From contig OY253670.1 in NCBI GenBank assembly GCA_958009085.1, positions 124,001 through 188,000 on the forward strand: a stretch of DNA of 64,000 nucleotides, read 5' to 3'. This document shows, piece after piece, positions 20,573-61,251 of the stretch. Position numbers and translations under genes: made by a program. This DNA comes from Protoeuglena noctilucae. Taxonomy: Eukaryota. The notes below the pieces were generated by a model that saw only the letters and a program-made list of their open reading frames with translations, was not told where the DNA came from and searched no databases. The number at the start of each line of letters is the position of its first letter. Position 1 is the first letter of the stretch.

Positions 20573-21137
20573 CCGACCCGTGTGACTCGCCAGCCTGCGC
20601 TCCTCCGACCCCGCTGCTGCAGACGCACCGTCTGCCTGCGCAGGCGTCCCGGCCGTGCCCGTGAAACACTCGGTCAAACCAGCAGGGTATGGTACCTATC
20701 CCGTGTGCTCAAACTTTGCGAGCACCACACGCGAATTCACGAACACCCCCACACAACCTTTTGTTCCGAGTCAAGTACCACTGCTTTTTCCTGATGATGC
20801 GTGCTTGGTGACCGTTGCGCCCCCCCGGACGGCTCCACCCGTCTGAAGGCCGAACTGGCCCCACGTCTCAGGCATTTACCACCTTCTGCGCGCACGACGG
20901 GACGCGCGCGAGCTGGGCGAGGGGCGAGGGGCGAGGGGCGTCGCCCCAGGTAACCAGTGAGCACATAGGCCCGGTGGTGCGACGGTCTTATGTTTTCTGT
21001 TGTACCGACACGCTGCAGGGGGTCTGGCTGCCGTTCGCGCCCGAACCATCCCCACGCCTGCTCGGCGGTCTGGCGGCGAGGGCATTTCCTCAGGAGCCTC
21101 CTGCGACCCCCATCCTCCGCGCGCAGGCTGAGTCGTC

Positions 21138-23993
21138 ATGAAGGGTGAGGCGGAGACAAGCGCCGGGGGTCTGGCTAGCACGAGCGGCCAGGCCATGGAG
21201 GAACCGGATCCGTCGCGGCCGAAACAGGTGAGAAGCCGCGATCCCCTTCCAGTAGAGCGATGCAGGGGCTCGCGGGCGCCCTCGCGCGCGCGTGGAACCG
21301 CCTCGCGAGGGCGGGTGGCGCCCCGTGTGCGCTGGGGTGGGTAGCGCCGGCTCTCCGGCCCGCGTTTCACGGATGGCCGCCTCGCCGCGCTGACGCATTG
21401 CTTGGAAGCAGTGGTGACTGCTCGGGTTCCTGGTGTGCCCTAAGATCCCTCCGGATCTCAGGAATGATCCATGCCACCACGTCGCCCCCAGGGCGTCCTG
21501 TGGATGGGCGGCCTCGACGACTGGATGGACGAGGGGTATGTCGCCAACCTCTTCGCACCAGCGTTCCTCGTCCAGTCCGTCAAACTCATGCGGCGCTCCC
21601 GGGGACGGTGGCGATCGTACGCTTTCGTTGACTTTGGGGTGAGGGCCCGGGCCGCGCTGGCCCGACCACGTCGCCCCCTCGACGCGTGCGTGGATGAAAT
21701 GTCGCGATGCCGGCTGGATACGCCGGATGTGCTCCCCTGGCGGCACCTCATCGGGCAGCACGGTGACCTCCCCCTCCGCCGGATCGCGCGTGGCATCGGA
21801 GATCCACGCCCTCCCTTTGCGATACGTCGCAGACCCGTGATGCGGCGGCGGCAGCCCTGCGGGCGTTCGCGGGGCGTGCGATGCCGGGCACCCCACGACG
21901 CATGTTTCGCCTCAACTGGGCCGAGTTCGGCCTCGCCACGGCGCTGGAGAACGAGTACTCGCTCTTCATTGGGGATTTGGACCTTTCCGTAGCGTGAGGG
22001 CGGCGCAGAACGCGCCCGCGGTCGGAATGCTGCCCCAGCATGGTCGCGCTGGCAGGGTGACGTGGCTGTGCCGCCCGCGACGCAGGGACTACCAGCTCTA
22101 GGAGGTCTTTCAGAAAAAGTACACGACCGTTCGGTCAGCCAAGGTCATCGTCGACGGGGCTACCGGCAAGTCGCGGGGCTTTGGCTTCGTGCGTTTCACG
22201 GGCCAAGCAGAGCGCGACGCGGCCGCCCGCGACATGGACGGCGCCGTCATCGGGTCCCGAGCCGTCAGGTGATGCGGACGTCGCGATCCTGCGGTGCGCT
22301 GGCGGGGCTCCCCGCCTGCACCGACCTCCATGCCACGCGCGTCCCTCTCCGCAGGGCCCTCCCGGCCACGTCCGCTCGGGGCCCCAATGCCGGCGCCCCA
22401 GATGTAGAGCCGGAGCCGAGCAATGACATGCGCAACGGTGCGGCCGCGAGTGGCGGGCGCGTGGAGCTAGCCGAGCTCCCTGCGCCACGCCCGCACTTCC
22501 GCCGACCCTTCCCCTCCGCAGTCATTTTCGTGCACAACTTGAACAGCGCCAGGACTACGGACGCCGCCCTCGCGGAGTTCTTCGCCGCCGTGGGCCGAGT
22601 CGAGGCGGCCCGCGTATTCCAGGGACAGGACAGTGGATTTGTGCGCTACACGTCCCAGTACGACGCCGCCCGGGCCATGGAGAGACTCCAGGGCTGTGTG
22701 TTCAACGGAAAGCCCCTGCAGCTCACGAGCGGCCAGCAAGTCCAAGCAGCATACTCTCAGGTGGCGCTGCCAGCAATGCACCGCACTGCATCGCCGGGCC
22801 TCCTCTGCGCCACCTTTGCGGCCGCTCGTGTGCTTGCATGGCGGGGGCGCGACAGCCGGTCACGGAGACCCGAGACACTGCTGCGGGCTGAAGGGCACCT
22901 GTCGCCCCGCGTGCCCCGCAGGCGTTGATGCCGGCAAGCTACCTGCCCCCCGCGGGCCCCTTGCTGGCCGGCATGCGATACGAATCGGAGCAGACCGGCG
23001 GGGGGATGTCGGTCCCCGGGGCCGCGCCAACCAACCCTTCCTCGTGGGACGTGTCTGGCTGGGCTCCCACGACCTACGGTGTGCTGGGGCAGGGGGCACT
23101 GGCGGGGATGACCCTGCCGCAGGTGTTGATTCTCAACCAGGCATACGGCATGACGCCATACCAGCAGCAGATGGTGAGGCGCGCGAGAGGCCTAGGGTCA
23201 GCGTGGGTCGGGGTGGCCGCGTGTGCGGGCGAGAACGTCCTGCGGCTTCCGCGCCCCCGCAGCTCCTGCACGCGGCGGTGATGCCGGACCAGCAGCTCCC
23301 TCTCCTGCCCATGTCGCCCATGTCTCCGGCCATGGCCGCACAGCCCTACGCGCCAGCACAGTACGACGTTGGGGCGTACATGGGGCAGGGTGTGGCGACA
23401 GACCTGTCCGCGGCTGGCCTCGTGCCCCGCCTCGCGCACGGGTACGGCGTCGCAGGTCACGGCACCGTGGCAGCTGCGTCGGTGCCCCGAGGGGCGGGGC
23501 CGCCACGTGTTGTGATGGGGGGCACCTTCGGCGACCTCACCTCAGCGATGCCCGGGTGAGCGATGCAAGCCATGCAGTTGCGCGGCGGTGGACGCGCGCT
23601 TGGTAGACTGCGCTGGCTGCTGTGCCGCGCACGCTCGGCAGCCCGCACCGCCCATCCCGCCCCGCCCTTGCTGCCTACAGCATGATGGCCATGCAGGACC
23701 AGCACCGGCACACCTCCAGCCAGCCCTCGGGGCGAGGTGAGACCGCTCGCCTGCTATTGCACCGGTGGAAGCCCCCGTGACCCCGTGCATGCGACACCCA
23801 TGCGAGACCCTTGCCCCGCCACGCACCCACAGGCGACGCGGCTGTCGCGGAGTTCCTCTCCGGCACCTCCCAGCACAGCCTGGTGCTATCCGGGACTATG
23901 TCGCTCCCCGGGGACCCCCCACCGGACGTCGAGGAGTTGCAGAGGCAGCTCCGAACGCTCTCTATGGACGGGACAGGCGCCTCCCGGCAGTAG
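21138..23993 (+). CDS. Three-RRM RNA-binding protein of RBP45/RBP47 (Nam8-like) type, with an in-frame TAG at 22099-22101
   Basis: RRM1 LWMGGLDDWMDEGYV..YAFVDF..FRLNWA; RRM2 SLFIGDLDLSVADYQL*EVFQKKYTTVRSAKVIVDGATGKSRGFGFVRF; RRM3 IFVHNL..GFVRY..AMERLQG. Low-complexity Q/M/P tail. Confidence 0.8.
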
Positions 23994-25791
23994 CCCGCCT
24001 CTGCAGCCTCGCCGGCGCTCCATGGCGCCGCAGATACCCGCGAGGACACCCCCACCCCGCCCATCGGTTCCATGCCTGGGTCGTTCTCGCCAGGCGGCCC
24101 CCGCCCCTTGCGTGCTGGGGTCCGCCTGCGCCCACCCCTCCCGCGGACACTGACAGGTGGCCCCGGCTCCGCTGCTCCGGGCGCCACTCCTCTTCTCGTC
24201 TGTGCGCCGTCGGGACAGCCTGGGCCGTCGCACTCTCTCCCATGCCTTTCCCGCTGCCCGTCACGCTGCCTCCGGGCTCAGGGCTTTGCTGGGACATGCC
24301 GCATGCCACGTGCGCCCCCGCTGGAGGGCGGTGCATGCCTGCCGCCCCCGGCGCCTTCCTCGCCGGCTCGTCTCCTCGCGCTCCTTCGCCACCCCCGCTG
24401 CATGTCGTCCCCCGCCTCCCCAGCATTTGCAGTAACAACACACGGCAGCCGTCGATCTTTTGGCCCATCTTCGCCGGGTCCCACCACCGGGAGGGGCTGC
24501 CTACCATCGCAGGGATTGCCGTGCAAGTGCGTTGCCTAGATGAGAATCTTGTCCAGCGCGGCCCCTCCCCCATTCCTCCGTTCCACGAGCGTAGACCCAT
24601 CTCCTTTGCCTCACCTCCCGACGCCCTCCCAGGCCCGCTGTCGTTTCCTTGCGTGGGAGGGCCGCTTGCCCCTCCGCCGGCCGGCGCTTGGCGCCCCAGC
24701 GGCTCGCGCCTCCGCCTCCGCCCTGCTACCTGGGCGTTGCGAGCGCGGGGCCCTCGCCGCCCCTCGCACGGGACACGCTCCTTTCCCCGCCCCGGCCATC
24801 CATCGCAGATTACCATGCTATGGATGTAATGCGAGGCCTGGCCGAACAACACCCCTCGCGCGCATTTCCAGCGCCCCCCGGCACGCTCGCCAGCATGGAC
24901 AGCCGCACACCCCAGTGGCCGCGCGCCTTTCCGTGGGCCACGTTAGACGTCCTCGGGCCGGCCGGCCCGCTGTCCTGCACCGCTGGCCCTCCCGGACAGC
25001 GTGTTTGGAAGGCGCCTTCTATCGTCGAGGTTTGCCTCTGTGTTTGCTGGGCCCCTCGAGCGCACCCAGGCCCGGCGTATGGGCCGCTGACCTCATGACC
25101 TCGGCCGAGGCTGCCTGGGACTCTTTGCGCCCTCCATTGGTGCTTGACTTGCTGCCCCCGCGGCTTGGCGTGGGGTGACCGCGTCGCCCGTCCGCAGCCG
25201 CGGCAGCGCGTGGCTCTTGTCTCTGCCGTCTCTGCCGCCATCTCTCCTCGTTGCTAGCCCTTGTTCTCGACGCCCCCGCAAGTTGCAGGATGCTTTGCAA
25301 ACAATGACGCGTGGCATGGTTGCGCCAAGTGTTGCCGTGATGCGTGGGCCTGCCTTGCTTCGCCGACGTGCTTGCCCGTCTGCGCCGCCTCCCAGCTCTG
25401 GGGTGGCCCAGTGGATGTGCCTTGTTCCTCGTGTGGTACGGGCAACGCATGGATCCGCCTTTTAGCCCCTGCTGGAGGCTCTCCGTGTTGAAGGACCCCC
25501 CGTTGTCCAGGTCCTGGACGTAACGTGTAACGTGAAAGACGATCCCCCCACCAGCATTCGGGGAGGGCCTCGTCGTCGACCTTGTTGAGTCGTCTCGGAA
25601 AAAGCGCCCTGCTGTGCCTGACCAGGTATGACCCGCTAGCTGGACGTCGTCTCTAGCGCGAGGAAGCTGTCCCGATCCGCTAAATCATTCGTTCTTTCAT
25701 GATTCGTGTGCGTCGGACGATAGCTGTGTGCGCTAGTTCCCTCCTGCCGTCCCGCGGACCCCGCGTCGGTCCGACTTCCAGCTGCGGAGCC

Positions 25792-34682: not shown

Positions 34683-37600
34683 ATGAATCAGGGTTCCGCA
34701 GAACTCGCTGCATCCCTAGCAAGTCTTTCCCCGGGAACCCGCAGCTTCCTGGGGCTCACCAGGCGAGCCCGCAGGCCATGCAGCACTACCCTCCCCTCTC
34801 TTTCGGCCCATACGCGACACGGAACCCCCTTTCGCGCCCTCAGCCCGCAAGACTGCGCGTCACAGGCCGCGCTTCTTGCTTCCGTCCTGTCCCCCGAGGG
34901 CCGGGCGTCCCTCCTGGACCTGCGTGGCATCAGCGAGCCTTTCTTTGTCGCCTTGTCCAAGCTCCTTGTCTCCCGCACCGTCACCCTGGAGCAGGTCCTC
35001 GATCTCGACTATGTCGGGCTCCTAGAAATCGTGTCCCAGGCGCCGCCAGACCAGCAACTCCCGCTCCTGGAGAGCACGCTCCGGAGGGTTGGTCAGGCGC
35101 AGCCCGGTCGCGGCAAATCGACATACCGTGCTGCAGCACGCACGCCGACATACGCGATCGCTCGCGCGTGACCCGTGCGTGTCGCTACGGCCGCCACTGC
35201 CCCACGTCCTGCCACCCCTGCCTGGTCCACCCCCCCCAGGTCTGCCGTCTCTGCCTCCCCGTCCCCCTCCCCGCCCCCCGCGCGTCCCAGCGCGCGCCCG
35301 CCCGCCCTGTCTGCGGCGGAGCGCCTGTCCTCCCTCCAAGTTTCCGGCAACGGCCCCGTCGCCTCCCCCGCGCGGTGGGCGCGGTCCGAGACCTCCCAGT
35401 CATGGAGGAATAGCCCCCAGTCCACGTCCCCCATTGCCGCGAGCGCCCTGCCGCAATGGGGCGCCGTGGGGTCCCCGGCCTCCGCGGCATTCGCCACGCC
35501 CACAGGTGTGAGGGTGCTGTGCATGGGCATGGATGTGAAGCTGAGACACGGGAGCAAACATAGGGTAGGTGTTTGGCGGGTGCATCGGCACGGCTACTGC
35601 ATGGACACTCAACTTATCCACTCCTCGACTCCCGCAGGCACCCGCCCTGGATCCCCAGAGCTGGGGGCCACCCCCGGCAGCAACGCCGTCACGCAGTGGC
35701 GGCCGACCCCCACGTCCACGCCCACCCCTGCTGCGGGCCCCATGGCGCCGCCGTCGGGATGGAAGGCCCCTGCGCGGGGGATGGACGGACTGCATGCGGG
35801 CGTCCCGGGTGGCGCCCCGACCCTCGCGAATGGGTTCCGGAGTTATGACGGGCAGCTGGCGGGTGAGGGCGGATAAAGAGGGTCGCGAGACGCGCAGACG
35901 AGATGCATAAAGAGATATGGATCCCTGTCCCGAGCGCTGCGTGTAGTTGGGAAGGGCGGCCTGCGCGGCATGCCATGCAGCTGTGACCCACGTGCCCTTT
36001 TGCTGTCGACAGGGTGCCGGACACCCGATGCGGCGGGCGGCTTTACGCCCGGCGGTCCCCGGCGGGACTCTGCGGGATGGAAGACGGCGGCCAGCCTCAA
36101 CGGAGCCTTGGGCAGGGACAGCGGGGGCGTGGCCACCCCGGGGCAGGCGTCGCTGTCACGGAGCGGGTCGGACCACAGCGGCCCGGGGTCCATGCGCAAG
36201 CAGGACGCGGTGCTAAATAGGTGAGTCAAGGGTGCCTGTGGGGGCTTTTCCTTGCACTGGAGCGTGCAGTGGGTGTGCGGCGGCAAGGCGGGAGTGCGCA
36301 CGCTGTCGCTGGACGCGACTTTGATCAATGTAAACAGCGCTGTTCATCTCATCGCTCTCACCCCTGCCGTGCCTGCCCCGCAGCTTCCCCCTGATCCTGA
36401 CTGGCACCAACACGTCAGAACTGTCGGGGTGGAACCCCGCCTCCACGTCCCCCGGGGGAGGGGCCAAGGCTCCCGGTAATCGCTGGTCTAACCTCTCGGA
36501 ATCTGGCCCGGGGCCCGCGAGCGCCGGGCAGAGGGCGCCGTGGCCTGCCCAGGGCCCTGAGTGGGGAGGGACCCTCGCTGTGCCCAGCCCAGGGGGGGCG
36601 GGCACGCCGCCTCCGGAGCTGGCGGCGGCGGCGCAGCATGCTCTGGCCCGGGTGCAGGCGGGGGCGGGACCCGCGAGGCCCTCGGAGGCGAGCGTGTCGG
36701 GAGGGGAGCTTGGGGAGGGCGGCGCAGGCGCAGGGGCGCGTGTGAGCCGGGGGTGGCGTCCCGGGGATGCCACGCCGCCGATGCGGGGGTCGACGGAAGT
36801 GCGGCGGGAGAAGGCGTGGCTGGCGGAGATCGAGGTGAGGGGGCAAGGGGTGCAGGCGGTGTGGATGGGCCGAGGCACTCCCGGTCACAGTATGGCTGCC
36901 GCTCTGCAGCCACTCGACGTTGCCATGTTTCGTTGATTGCAGGACATGCAGGGGCAGATTATGAACATCACCCAGGCGCCCTGGGTCGGGTCTCTTCACG
37001 CGTCGGCCAACCGTGCGGTGGAGGAGCTGCTGCAGGAGTCAGGGAAGAAGCTGCGCGCCCTGTGCCGGCTTCCCGAGGTGAGATTGACAAACGTCCATGA
37101 AGCACACACTAGAGGTACATGCAAGAGGCGTTGCTGTGGGTCCGAACGCAACCCCACCCGGTCGTCGCACTCACGCCCACCCTCTCCTGTGCCCCATTAG
37201 AGCATCGCCAGGGCCGCGCTTTCCAAAGAAGACTTTGAGGCGCTCCTCACGTGGTCCATGGACCTGAGTGTCCCCGAACTGACTGCCATTGGGGACTGGC
37301 TCTCGGACCCCACCACCCCCGTGCCCCTCCGCGCGCTCCTCTGCCTGCCGTCGTCAGCATTCTGGAAGTGCGCCACCGCCGACGACGTACGCGTGGCCGC
37401 GCAGCCACTCGCCAGGCTGCCGGGGAAGCTGCTGCAGGCGAGTGTGTGGGACAGGGCGAGGCGAGGCAGCGTGCAGCTGCAGGTTGGAAATCGTGTTGCG
37501 GAGAAGCGTGACTTGCACAGCAAACATGGGTCGAGTCTCACCAGTCGCCTTCGCACGGTGTTGGGGCAGGACCCACGACGAAAGGGCGAAATGGGCAAAA

Positions 37601-58710: not shown

Positions 58711-61251
58711 ATGCCCCGTGAGCTAGTCGTGATCCAGGTCGGGCAATGTGGCAACCAGATAGGAACTCGGTTCTGGGAGATGGCGCTGAGGTGACCGCGG
58801 TCTCCGCGACCTCCCTCAACCGCGCGAGGCGATGCGCCGCCGGCCTGTGCCCTCATTCCCTCGCGAGTGATGTCGTTCTTTCCATCGCGCGATGCGGGCA
58901 ACGGCGGAAGCTTTTGATCTTCTCGCGCAGGGAGCACGCGGCGCACAACCCGCAGGGCGTGTTTGACGACGCCATGAGCAGCTTCTTTCGGAACGTGGAT
59001 GCCAGGTTCGAGCCACCACAGGAGATTCCTTTGGGTGGCCGCGTGCGGGACCTGCGCGCTCGCGCCGTGGTCATCGACATGGAGGAAGGGGTCGTCAACT
59101 CTCTGCTGCAGGGCCCATTGGGGTAAGGGCCGCATTGCCGCTGACATCTGCGGCTGCTTCGACCAGCCGCGATGGCACCCACGGCCATCTGCTCTGATCC
59201 CAGGGACTTGTTCGACCACCGCTCCATGCTGACGGACGTGAGCGGCGCCGGCAACAACTGGGCCCACGGCTATGCCATGTACGGTCCCAAGTATCACGAC
59301 AACCTCGTCGAGTCCGTGCGGGCAGCCGCAGAGCACTGCGACTCTCTGCAGAGGTGGGCAGCGTGACCAGGAGCGCCCTTCCTTGCGCGCCACGCACCCA
59401 CACCTGTGGCTGGAACACTGACCCAGGTGTCGCGCATGTGCTGTCGAGCGATAAGCGTGTACTGACACCGTGACCTCCGCAGTTTCCTGGTCACCCACTC
59501 GCTGGGCGGTGGGACGGGCAGCGGCGTGGGTAGCTACCTCATGGGTGTGCTGGAGGACGAGTTTCCTGAGGTGTATCGCTTCAACGTGGCCGTGTTTCCC
59601 AGCGAAGACGACGACGTCATCACCTCGCCCTACAACTCCCTCCTCAGCCTGTCCAAGGCGAGTCCTGTGCATGTGGCAAAGGGTGCACCAGGGGTCAACC
59701 TAGGGCACATAAGCCTGCGAAACAGCGTGCCATGGGAAGTCTTGCGCATATTTCCACCCGCAGCTCGCCGAGCATTCGGACTGCGTCTTTCCCGTGGAGA
59801 ACCAGGCGCTGATGGACATCTGTGCAGCTATCGACGGGGCGGGCCCGCGGCTAGACGCGAGGAGAGGTGCGGCACTCGACGGACAAGTGGCAGACGCGCC
59901 CGGGTGAGCGGTGCGGCGCTGACGGAAGAGGTGGAGTGGCGGCAGTGCTGGCGATGGCGGGAGTGCTGCATGTTGCATGGCAACGCACTTCATGTGTGCG
60001 AGGGTGAACGACGGGTGCCACATCATTCATACCCTGGCCCGTACACCCAGGACGCGGGAGAAGCCCTTTGACCGCATGAACGGCATCGCTGCCAGTCTGA
60101 TGCTCAACCTCACCTCCTCCGTCCGCTTCAAGGGCTCCCTCAACGGTGACGGCCGGCGCAGGGTAGCAAGATGGTCAACAAACCTTGTGCATAGACCTCC
60201 ACTATAATCGACATGATCTCTGTTTTTTCATCGATAAGTCTTGGTCCCCAATGTGCCGGGGATGGGACTTGCCGTCGCCATCCCCATCACCAAGAGAGAC
60301 CTTGGCTCTCAAGTCCTCCCTTGCCCCCAGTGGATGTCAATGAAATTACCATGAACATGGTCCCGTTCCCACGACTGCACTTCATGACTGCGTCCATGGC
60401 ACCCATATGGGCCCCGGGGGGTCCCCGTGCCATGCGGCAGCCCCGGGGCCTGGAGCAGATGTTCACAGACGTGCTGCAGCCCAAGAGCATGCTCGTGCGG
60501 TCGCAGCCCAAGGCACACACCACGCTGGTGAGGATTGGCCGAGCTAGGCTGGCGAGTCGTCACACAATGCCCGTCGCTGGTCGGCTGCCCCACTGAGCCG
60601 CCTGGGCAGGCAGGCGCTGCGCTGGCGTTTCATCGACGCTCCGATAGTGCCGCTTTCGATGCACGCCGGCCGTGACCTCCCTGCACCGCAGGCCTGCGCG
60701 ATGCTGATGAGGGGCGAGGCGACCATCTCTGACGTGAACCGGTGCATGGCTAAGGTTAAGAAGGAGATGCGCATGGTGCCGTGGAACCGGGACGGTTTCA
60801 AAATCGGACTGTGCAGCAAGGGGCAGGTCGGCATGCCACAGGTGAGCGCCTGCCAGCCCCACTCGGTGTCACAACTGAGCAGCAGAGCAATGGACGAACT
60901 ACTGGCCTGCGTCCTCTGCGTTTCGCGACCCGAGAGAGCGCGCCTGCACGCTGCCACCCCTGCGCACCACCACCTCTACCCCTCGCATGGCCCCCGCAGT
61001 CCCTCCTGTGCCTTCAGAACAACACGGGCATCCAGTCGAGTTTCCGCGCCATGTGCGACCGCTTCGACAAGCTCTACTCCCGCAGCTTCTACCTCCACCA
61101 CTACACGCAGTACATCGAGCAGGCATCGTTTGACTGCGCGAGGGAAGACGTGAGGCAGCTGGTGGAGGAGTACAGGGGGCTAGAGACCGGAGGGGTGCAG
61201 GGCGCGCCCGCCACGCGCCTGCAGCCGGTCGGGCTGTCTTTTAACCGGTAG
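58711..61251 (+). CDS. TUBE1: Epsilon-tubulin (BLD2 orthologue)
   Basis: [98 protein letters not shown]. Confidence 0.96.

Follow-up and report, generated by a model that had tools for sequence, protein, structure and literature searches.

An in-frame TAG within RRM2 of an RBP45/47-like gene of Protoeuglena noctilucae: probably a young nonsense allele in an alga that reads TAG as stop

The stretch of DNA analysed here (the window; 64,000 nucleotides, G000:C3:124001-188000 of a genome of 26.3 Mb in 27 contigs) contains an RBP45/47/Nam8-like gene whose RNA-defined spliced frame runs from an ATG at 21138 to a TAG at 23991-23993 and, along its 555 codons, is interrupted by one internal stop, codon 138 (Table 1). 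The three RRMs bear the motifs of the family, in keeping with the RBP45/47-like label of a preliminary description made from the sequence, with RRM2 and RRM3 above the Pfam cut-off and the RRM1 exon below it, and are followed by a low-complexity tail. With RBP45 and RBP47 of plants and Nam8 of yeast the gene shares the three RRMs, the LWxG start of RRM1 and the NWA motif before RRM2, and its RRM2 pattern matches 40 homologues, the best hits at about 31–41% identity; it differs from them in its long branch, its long low-complexity tail and the in-frame stop in RRM2. We take the LWxG start to be typical of RBP45/47/Nam8, and the family label, the hits being unnamed, comes from such motifs. According to PMC9813592, RBP45d is a homologue of the yeast U1 auxiliary protein Nam8. 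Automatic callers report just a 387-residue downstream piece of the gene (P0003). An intron in the 5' UTR occupies 20950-21126, and in both RNA contigs more than 600 nt are transcribed beyond the final stop, although contigs cannot show the true transcript end.

Once the intron that ends with the acceptor at 22085 is removed, the exon reads GAC TAC CAG CTC TAG GAG GTC TTT, that is DYQL, the TAG at 22099-22101, and EVFQKKY, exactly as first described; from the RRM fold, the codon presumably sits in the first helix of RRM2. Out of 12 runs with the stretch, four were aligned over 20900-24600 (X1 and X2, DNA; X9 and X10, RNA). The DNA assemblies X2 and X1 cross the whole interval with the TAG present and zero differences, and the RNA runs X9 and X10 show ten GT..AG joints, no variant letters and again the TAG. 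X9 joins 21993 to 22086 (GT..AG, 92 nt skipped), and a 14-letter loose end of X10 at 22086 equals the end of the upstream exon, giving the same junction. No letter differences or gaps were found in any of the four over 3.7 kb, which suggests one strain; all four are assembled contigs, in which rare variants and transcript levels are invisible, X1 and X9 come from one sample, and either DNA run may be the source of the assembly. The coding signal is still +0.16 per codon 3' of the internal TAG and ends at the second TAG (23991-23993), so that one mRNA would need TAG in two meanings if the first were translated.

Table 1. Coordinates of the features in the window
Feature	Position	Strand	Evidence
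RBP45/47/Nam8-like gene, 555 codons including both stops	21138..23993	+	RNA joints, GT..AG ends, translation, Pfam RRM_1, family alignment
Ten coding exons	21138-21227, 21492-21638, 21833-21993, 22086-22268, 22355-22437, 22522-22760, 22922-23173, 23263-23555, 23681-23736, 23833-23993	+	RNA joints and GT..AG ends
In-frame TAG, codon 138, context CTC TAG GAG	22099..22101	+	DNA, RNA, translation, family alignment
Phase-2 intron GTGAGG...CGCAG, removal brings TAG into frame	21994..22085	+	X9 joint, X10 loose end; donor score 3.9, acceptor 4.45
RRM1, first part, LWMGGL motif	21492..21638	+	Pfam RRM_1 E 0.008, below curated cut-off on single exon; family alignment
RRM2, main part, intact RGFGFVRF motif 3' of TAG	22087..22266	+	Pfam RRM_1 E 8.8e-12, read with TAG as Q
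RRM3	22524..22760	+	Pfam RRM_1 E 1.1e-12
Terminal TAG, coding signal ends	23991..23993	+	Coding log-odds per codon +0.14 before, -0.38 after; GC3 0.84 to 0.69
TAG ending epsilon-tubulin, ordinary terminator	61249..61251	+	Downstream log-odds -16.2

A profile of the RRM2 exon and its paralogue gave 150 matches, 93 of them spanning RRM1 and RRM2 and 40 with the LWxG motif. In these 40 homologues the TAG column holds Q 18 times, L 8, M 5, E 3, Y 2, G 2, H 1 and V 1, and the Q count may be inflated by the Q that the query itself had at this column. The glutamine, at first called conserved, is the commonest residue there and is not invariant. The paralogue (G000:C20, locus L192) has three intact RRMs, no stop in six joined exons and Gln at the TAG column. 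In a quick tree of 42 rows the two copies group at SH-aLRT 85 (unstarred, the placement of the long branch being unsure), and the branch of the window copy is long, at 3.22, where the paralogue has 1.27 and the median branch 0.83. At columns at least 90% conserved the window copy matches 20/23 before the stop and 12/14 after it, the paralogue 21/23 and 12/14; judged by these residues, the gene shows no decay, in agreement with the earlier remark that its remainder looked intact. Protein searches for close relatives gave distant RRM proteins and, from the gene itself, its downstream fragment, and nothing else (14 of 296 candidates were hits in one case, 1 of 1,683 in another), a protein cluster had three members, all matching the window gene itself, and a metagenome scan found 10 loci at 36–62% identity, except for one 16-residue match at 81%, and no close relative.

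The use of TAG as a terminator was assessed with a gene-finding HMM trained on 879 kb (about 3% of the 26.3 Mb), namely the window, 15 blocks of 20–50 kb (7 around dynein genes) and 71 short loci. Its models are approximate, giving 525 codons for the RBP45/47-like gene where RNA gives 555 and merging some neighbours, and it recovers the TAG at 22099-22101 when readthrough is allowed. The sample comprises 281 genes of at least 100 codons, with about 146,000 codons, 5,009 CAG and 525 CAA. Among 242 predicted gene ends in it, 148 are TGA, 73 TAG (about 30%) and 21 TAA. The predominance of TGA in the window had been put at 19 of 22 gene ends and proved weaker: 14 TGA, 5 TAG and 1 TAA among 20, by approximate models that sometimes merge neighbours. 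After 71 of the 73 TAG ends the next 28 codons have a coding log-odds of 5 or less (2/73 lie above +5), with medians of -21.0 after TAG and -24.8 after TGA (p 0.07); a backup stop within 5 codons follows 6/73 TAG ends and 17/143 TGA ends, no excess after TAG. Several C-termini before TAG we recognise as presumably natural ends: the actin-like IVHRKCF, two dynein heavy chains, the Dim1-like GIHFS and epsilon-tubulin. The case of epsilon-tubulin had already cast doubt on a full reassignment, a doubt borne out here by TAG as terminator in many genes. A genome-wide reassignment of TAG is ruled out: the alga reads TAG as stop, and the 3% sampled of its pedinophyte-like nuclear genome follows the standard code.

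Internal stops are rare. Seven dynein heavy chains contain 1,378 Gln codons (1,314 CAG and 64 CAA) and zero internal stops, 29 of 30 DHC_N2 matches genome-wide are stop-free (the other has a TGA), and none of 917 codons opposite Gln in paralogue alignments is TAG. The sole stop in those alignments, a TGA opposite Lys or Cys in an ankyrin-repeat paralogue at G000:C8:611458 (+), is probably another nonsense allele. Among the 150 kinase matches listed, of 167, ten have a TGA and two a TAG, both TAGs inside stretches read as GC-AG introns and for this reason rejected as internal codons. Other candidates were also dropped: a TAG in a UPF1 match is a splice acceptor, in a gene model with a TAG at window position 35507 a predicted intron divides that codon, and the first exon concerned has weak support, and the TGA in L032 reflects a fusion of two genes. 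Of the 1,505 introns predicted, 187 (12%) begin with a GC donor, a high proportion should it be real; inspection of kinase genes (L197, L198) by eye gave two GCGAGG donors.

In the roughly 146,000 codons, stricter penalties of the HMM leave 3 TAG, 0 TAA and 0–1 TGA (the latter a gene fusion) as unsplit internal stops; looser penalties yield 7 TAG, 3 TAA and 2 TGA at -8, and 10 TAG, 10 TGA and 3 TAA at -7, most of them at gene fusions or gene ends. The counts are to be read as minima, since a false intron in the HMM can conceal a stop close to the edge of an exon. Two mid-exon TAGs outside the window, at G000:C2:948811 (minus; L165:8811) and G000:C3:16087 (minus; L086:1993), have coding-like flanks on both sides and are followed by 152 and 97 open codons; the exons with them have no Pfam match, and both may be considered candidate premature stops or readthrough sites. 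With this codon usage, 69–73% of new single-base nonsense mutations are computed to give TAG, and 3 TAG among 4 premature-looking stops are therefore as expected. Such stops affect 3-4/281 genes (1.1–1.4%), a figure that includes a window chosen for its stop and two cases without homology support. Subject to this selection of the window, it exceeds the rate in Drosophila, where nonsense alleles are common, at 35 genes of 13,300 per haploid genotype (PMC5888714).

The decoding machinery, as far as searched, agrees with the standard code. A genome-wide pattern for a CUA or UUA anticodon loop upstream of a T-loop gave 38 matches against 70 in the reversed control, and ARAGORN called no tRNA with either anticodon among all 20 nuclear pattern matches, a search blind to tRNAs whose introns are long, whose T-loops are odd or whose anticodons are edited; within it, the tRNA-Gln with CTA or TTA anticodon that reassignment led one to look for was not found. 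One CTA call at a relaxed threshold was rejected as the antisense of a tRNA-Ile, and ARAGORN with long introns and a relaxed threshold gave mostly noise. The ordinary tRNA-Gln(CUG) is present (L041), as is a probable tRNA-Gln(UUG) at C10:599238 (Rfam hit and pattern). In eRF1 (L033) the GTS, TASNIKS and YLCDNKF (YxCxxxF) motifs, E55 and S70 are all intact, giving no sign of the altered code for which this factor had seemed worth inspecting, and position 69 is Gln, as is typical of green plants. The motif list was taken from PMC5304391, which also relates that cognate tRNAs are often not found even in recoded genomes and that the UAG-recoded lineage exLh has a nearly canonical eRF1, altered motifs not being strictly required. 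The evidence from tRNAs and eRF1 against reassignment supports the standard code and does not decide the matter. The best PF03463 match, L032, was rejected as eRF1 and is pelota-like; this gene (L032:1970-2050, G000:C18) forms a very tight tandem pair with a small gene upstream, whose frame it shares and whose TGA precedes its start by 15 nt.

The position of the alga also matters, TAR=Gln being known in Dasycladales, Cladophorales, Trentepohliales and Blastophysa (PMC2984419) and the known green-algal lineages with TAR=Gln and TAG=Ser being ulvophytes (PMC2984419 and PMC8271138). A mitochondrial tRNA(UCU) at L002:2275-2346 (G000:C26) has G3.U70 and A73, a tRNA of Ala identity such as PMC12574857 describes for AGR=Ala in Marsupiomonadales; all mitochondrial tRNA matches lie on one strand, and in the plastid duplicated tRNAs flank a single-copy stretch of about 6 kb. 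These organelle features match the Marsupiomonadales (Pedinophyceae) as portrayed in the same paper, and the alga seems to belong with the pedinophytes rather than the ulvophytes. A literature search of main texts, with subscription papers largely outside it, brought up no account of pedinophytes with a deviant nuclear code, and a standard nuclear code for such pedinophytes is stated neither in the text available of PMC12574857 ('nuclear genetic code': 0 occurrences) nor in that of PMC8271138. With the ulvophyte TAR=Gln and with the UAG-only codes of Iotanema (Gln), the rhizarian exLh (Leu) and Scotinosphaera (Ser) the present case has in common a TAG at a Gln-modal column in a green alga. Recoded lineages have TAG at conserved columns in many genes (PMC8271138), whereas here there is one TAG in a conserved domain among 146,000 codons, TAG ends 30% of genes, and the algal class is different.

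We consider it likely, with a probability of about 0.72, that the TAG is a nonsense allele of recent origin, CAG>TAG, in a duplicate gene that is redundant and evolves fast. A recent C-to-T point mutation would have converted CAG to TAG (GAG, TTG or TAC being less likely sources), translation would cease after 137 residues, which cover RRM1 and the beginning of RRM2, apart from near-cognate leakage at a basal level at most, and the loss would be tolerated because of the second, less diverged paralogue with its three intact RRMs, which we infer to be functionally redundant. The lesion is single, lies one base from a common sense codon and is accompanied by an intact copy elsewhere. Because there is no second lesion and no decay, the stop would have to be younger than about 1.5–7% neutral divergence, the range depending on the assumed indel rate and the part of the gene counted. 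Strain-level nonsense alleles in redundant paralogues similarly combine one point change to a stop with an otherwise intact gene and an intact paralogue; here, in contrast, the polymorphism is presumed, and splicing of the transcript is still complete. The four identical runs, which may be of one strain, show no CAG allele at 22099-22101, and the Gln occurs just in the distant paralogue and the family. Several findings count against the nonsense allele: the genome has a UPF1 gene, yet the mRNA is completely spliced and its assembly unbroken (contigs give no level), decay is absent, there are two more mid-exon TAGs, and the rate of stops is above that of Drosophila. Of the four options that had been offered unranked, this one is best supported, sequencing error and reassignment are ruled out, and readthrough and low-level editing are left as rivals.

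The rival with most in its favour, though unlikely, is gene-specific readthrough, in which the TAG is kept by selection and some ribosomes insert Gln by way of the near-cognate tRNA-Gln(CUG), making a little or a regulated amount of the three-RRM protein beside a one-RRM product. The required tRNA is present, the RRMs 3' of the TAG are intact, the coding signal persists past it and every intron 3' of it is spliced; yet a young nonsense allele predicts equal intactness. Yeast inserts Gln at premature UAG and UAA codons (PMC13192750), but at a UAG in the QXQ context the level there is just about 1.6–4.7%, and the context here, CTC-TAG-GAG (TAG-G), is without QXQ, +4 C or CAR-YYA and has no flanking Gln codons. 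Over the 144 nt that follow, the RNA is no more stably folded than shuffled sequences (z -0.89). In Arabidopsis 34 of 144 readthrough genes encode RNA-binding proteins, an enrichment (PMC9293766), but the cases are C-terminal extensions, and RBP45 and RBP47 are not in the main text of that paper. Like programmed readthrough, then, the window gene has a long open coding-like frame after the stop and encodes an RNA-binding protein, but no leaky context or downstream structure was found and the stop splits a domain instead of preceding an extension.

An incipient or ambiguous code, with TAG generally leaky, rare internal TAGs tolerated as Gln and TAG still ending genes, appears very improbable. 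It would agree with the 3 TAG, 0–1 TGA and 0 TAA left under the stricter penalties and with the slightly more coding-like sequence after TAG ends, but these 3 TAG stand against about 5,500 CAG and CAA codons, the TAG share of internal stops matches mutation pressure, backup stops are in no excess after TAG ends, no CUA or UUA tRNA was found and the eRF1 motifs are intact. In ambiguous codes of the Condylostoma and Blastocrithidia type, termination occurs just near the transcript end. Stops are frequent inside genes in that type, which is not so here by the DHC_N2, dynein, kinase and HMM counts. We give slightly less credence to a minor transcript that avoids the stop, whether by U-to-C editing or by splicing from 21989 (TCC/GTAGCG) to the TAG as acceptor. 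Donor 21989 and acceptor 22101 would keep the frame, and rare variants drop out of contigs; nevertheless this splice escape, raised in the preliminary description, is absent from both RNA contigs, and it is unlikely because donor (-4.5) and acceptor (-3.9) both lie in the lowest 1% of scores among 1,505 predicted sites and the deleted stretch would include Val, Asp and Leu residues conserved in 88–100% of the family. We know of no nuclear U-to-C editing in green algae. Least credible of all are an error of assembly or sequencing and a complete change of TAG to Gln like that of ulvophytes. Gln is modal at the column, and ulvophytes provide a precedent for TAR=Gln (PMC2984419), but independent libraries, the DNA runs of 2016 and 2023 and two RNA runs, would not share an error, and against reassignment stand the 73/242 genes ended by TAG, the dyneins without internal stop and organelle features that point to Pedinophyceae.

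As a nonsense allele, the TAG carries little weight beyond an annotation point for this genome. The consequences would be larger under a doubtful proposal, in which TAG is a normal stop and is nonetheless read through as Gln, without a dedicated tRNA, at a few selected internal sites, in mid-RRM2 and perhaps at G000:C2:948811 and C3:16087. The protein, on this view a splicing or stress-granule factor, would switch between one-RRM and three-RRM forms, and the case would represent either programmed readthrough in mid-domain or TAG reassignment at an early, ambiguous stage, outside Ulvophyceae. Readthrough of this kind, if true, would be rare in lying in mid-domain and would serve as a model of the ambiguous intermediate that has been proposed for the origin of TAR=Gln in green algae (PMC2984419).

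The survey of tRNAs brought up some further genes of unusual type or arrangement. A nuclear tRNA with anticodon TAA and a long variable arm, at L034:1488-1577 (minus; G000:C17 near 355,800), has G73, a Ser-like discriminator, and a normal tRNA-Leu(TAA) with A73 is also present in L171; no recoding of TTA was seen, TTA codons aligning mostly to Leu, with Ser not among the top residues. The nuclear genome also carries a tRNA-Ile(GAT) at L012:1501-1575 and a tRNA-Val(GAC) at L041:1494-1565. In eukaryotes the usual anticodons of these two tRNAs are AAT and AAC; Ala(AGC), Pro(AGG) and Leu(AAG) here conform to the common type. Further tRNA genes lie less than 1 kb from the starts of C2, C7 and C11, and on a small contig (G000:C24:1038-14592) six identical or near-identical tRNA-Ser(GCT) genes stand in tandem, about 2.3–3.1 kb apart.
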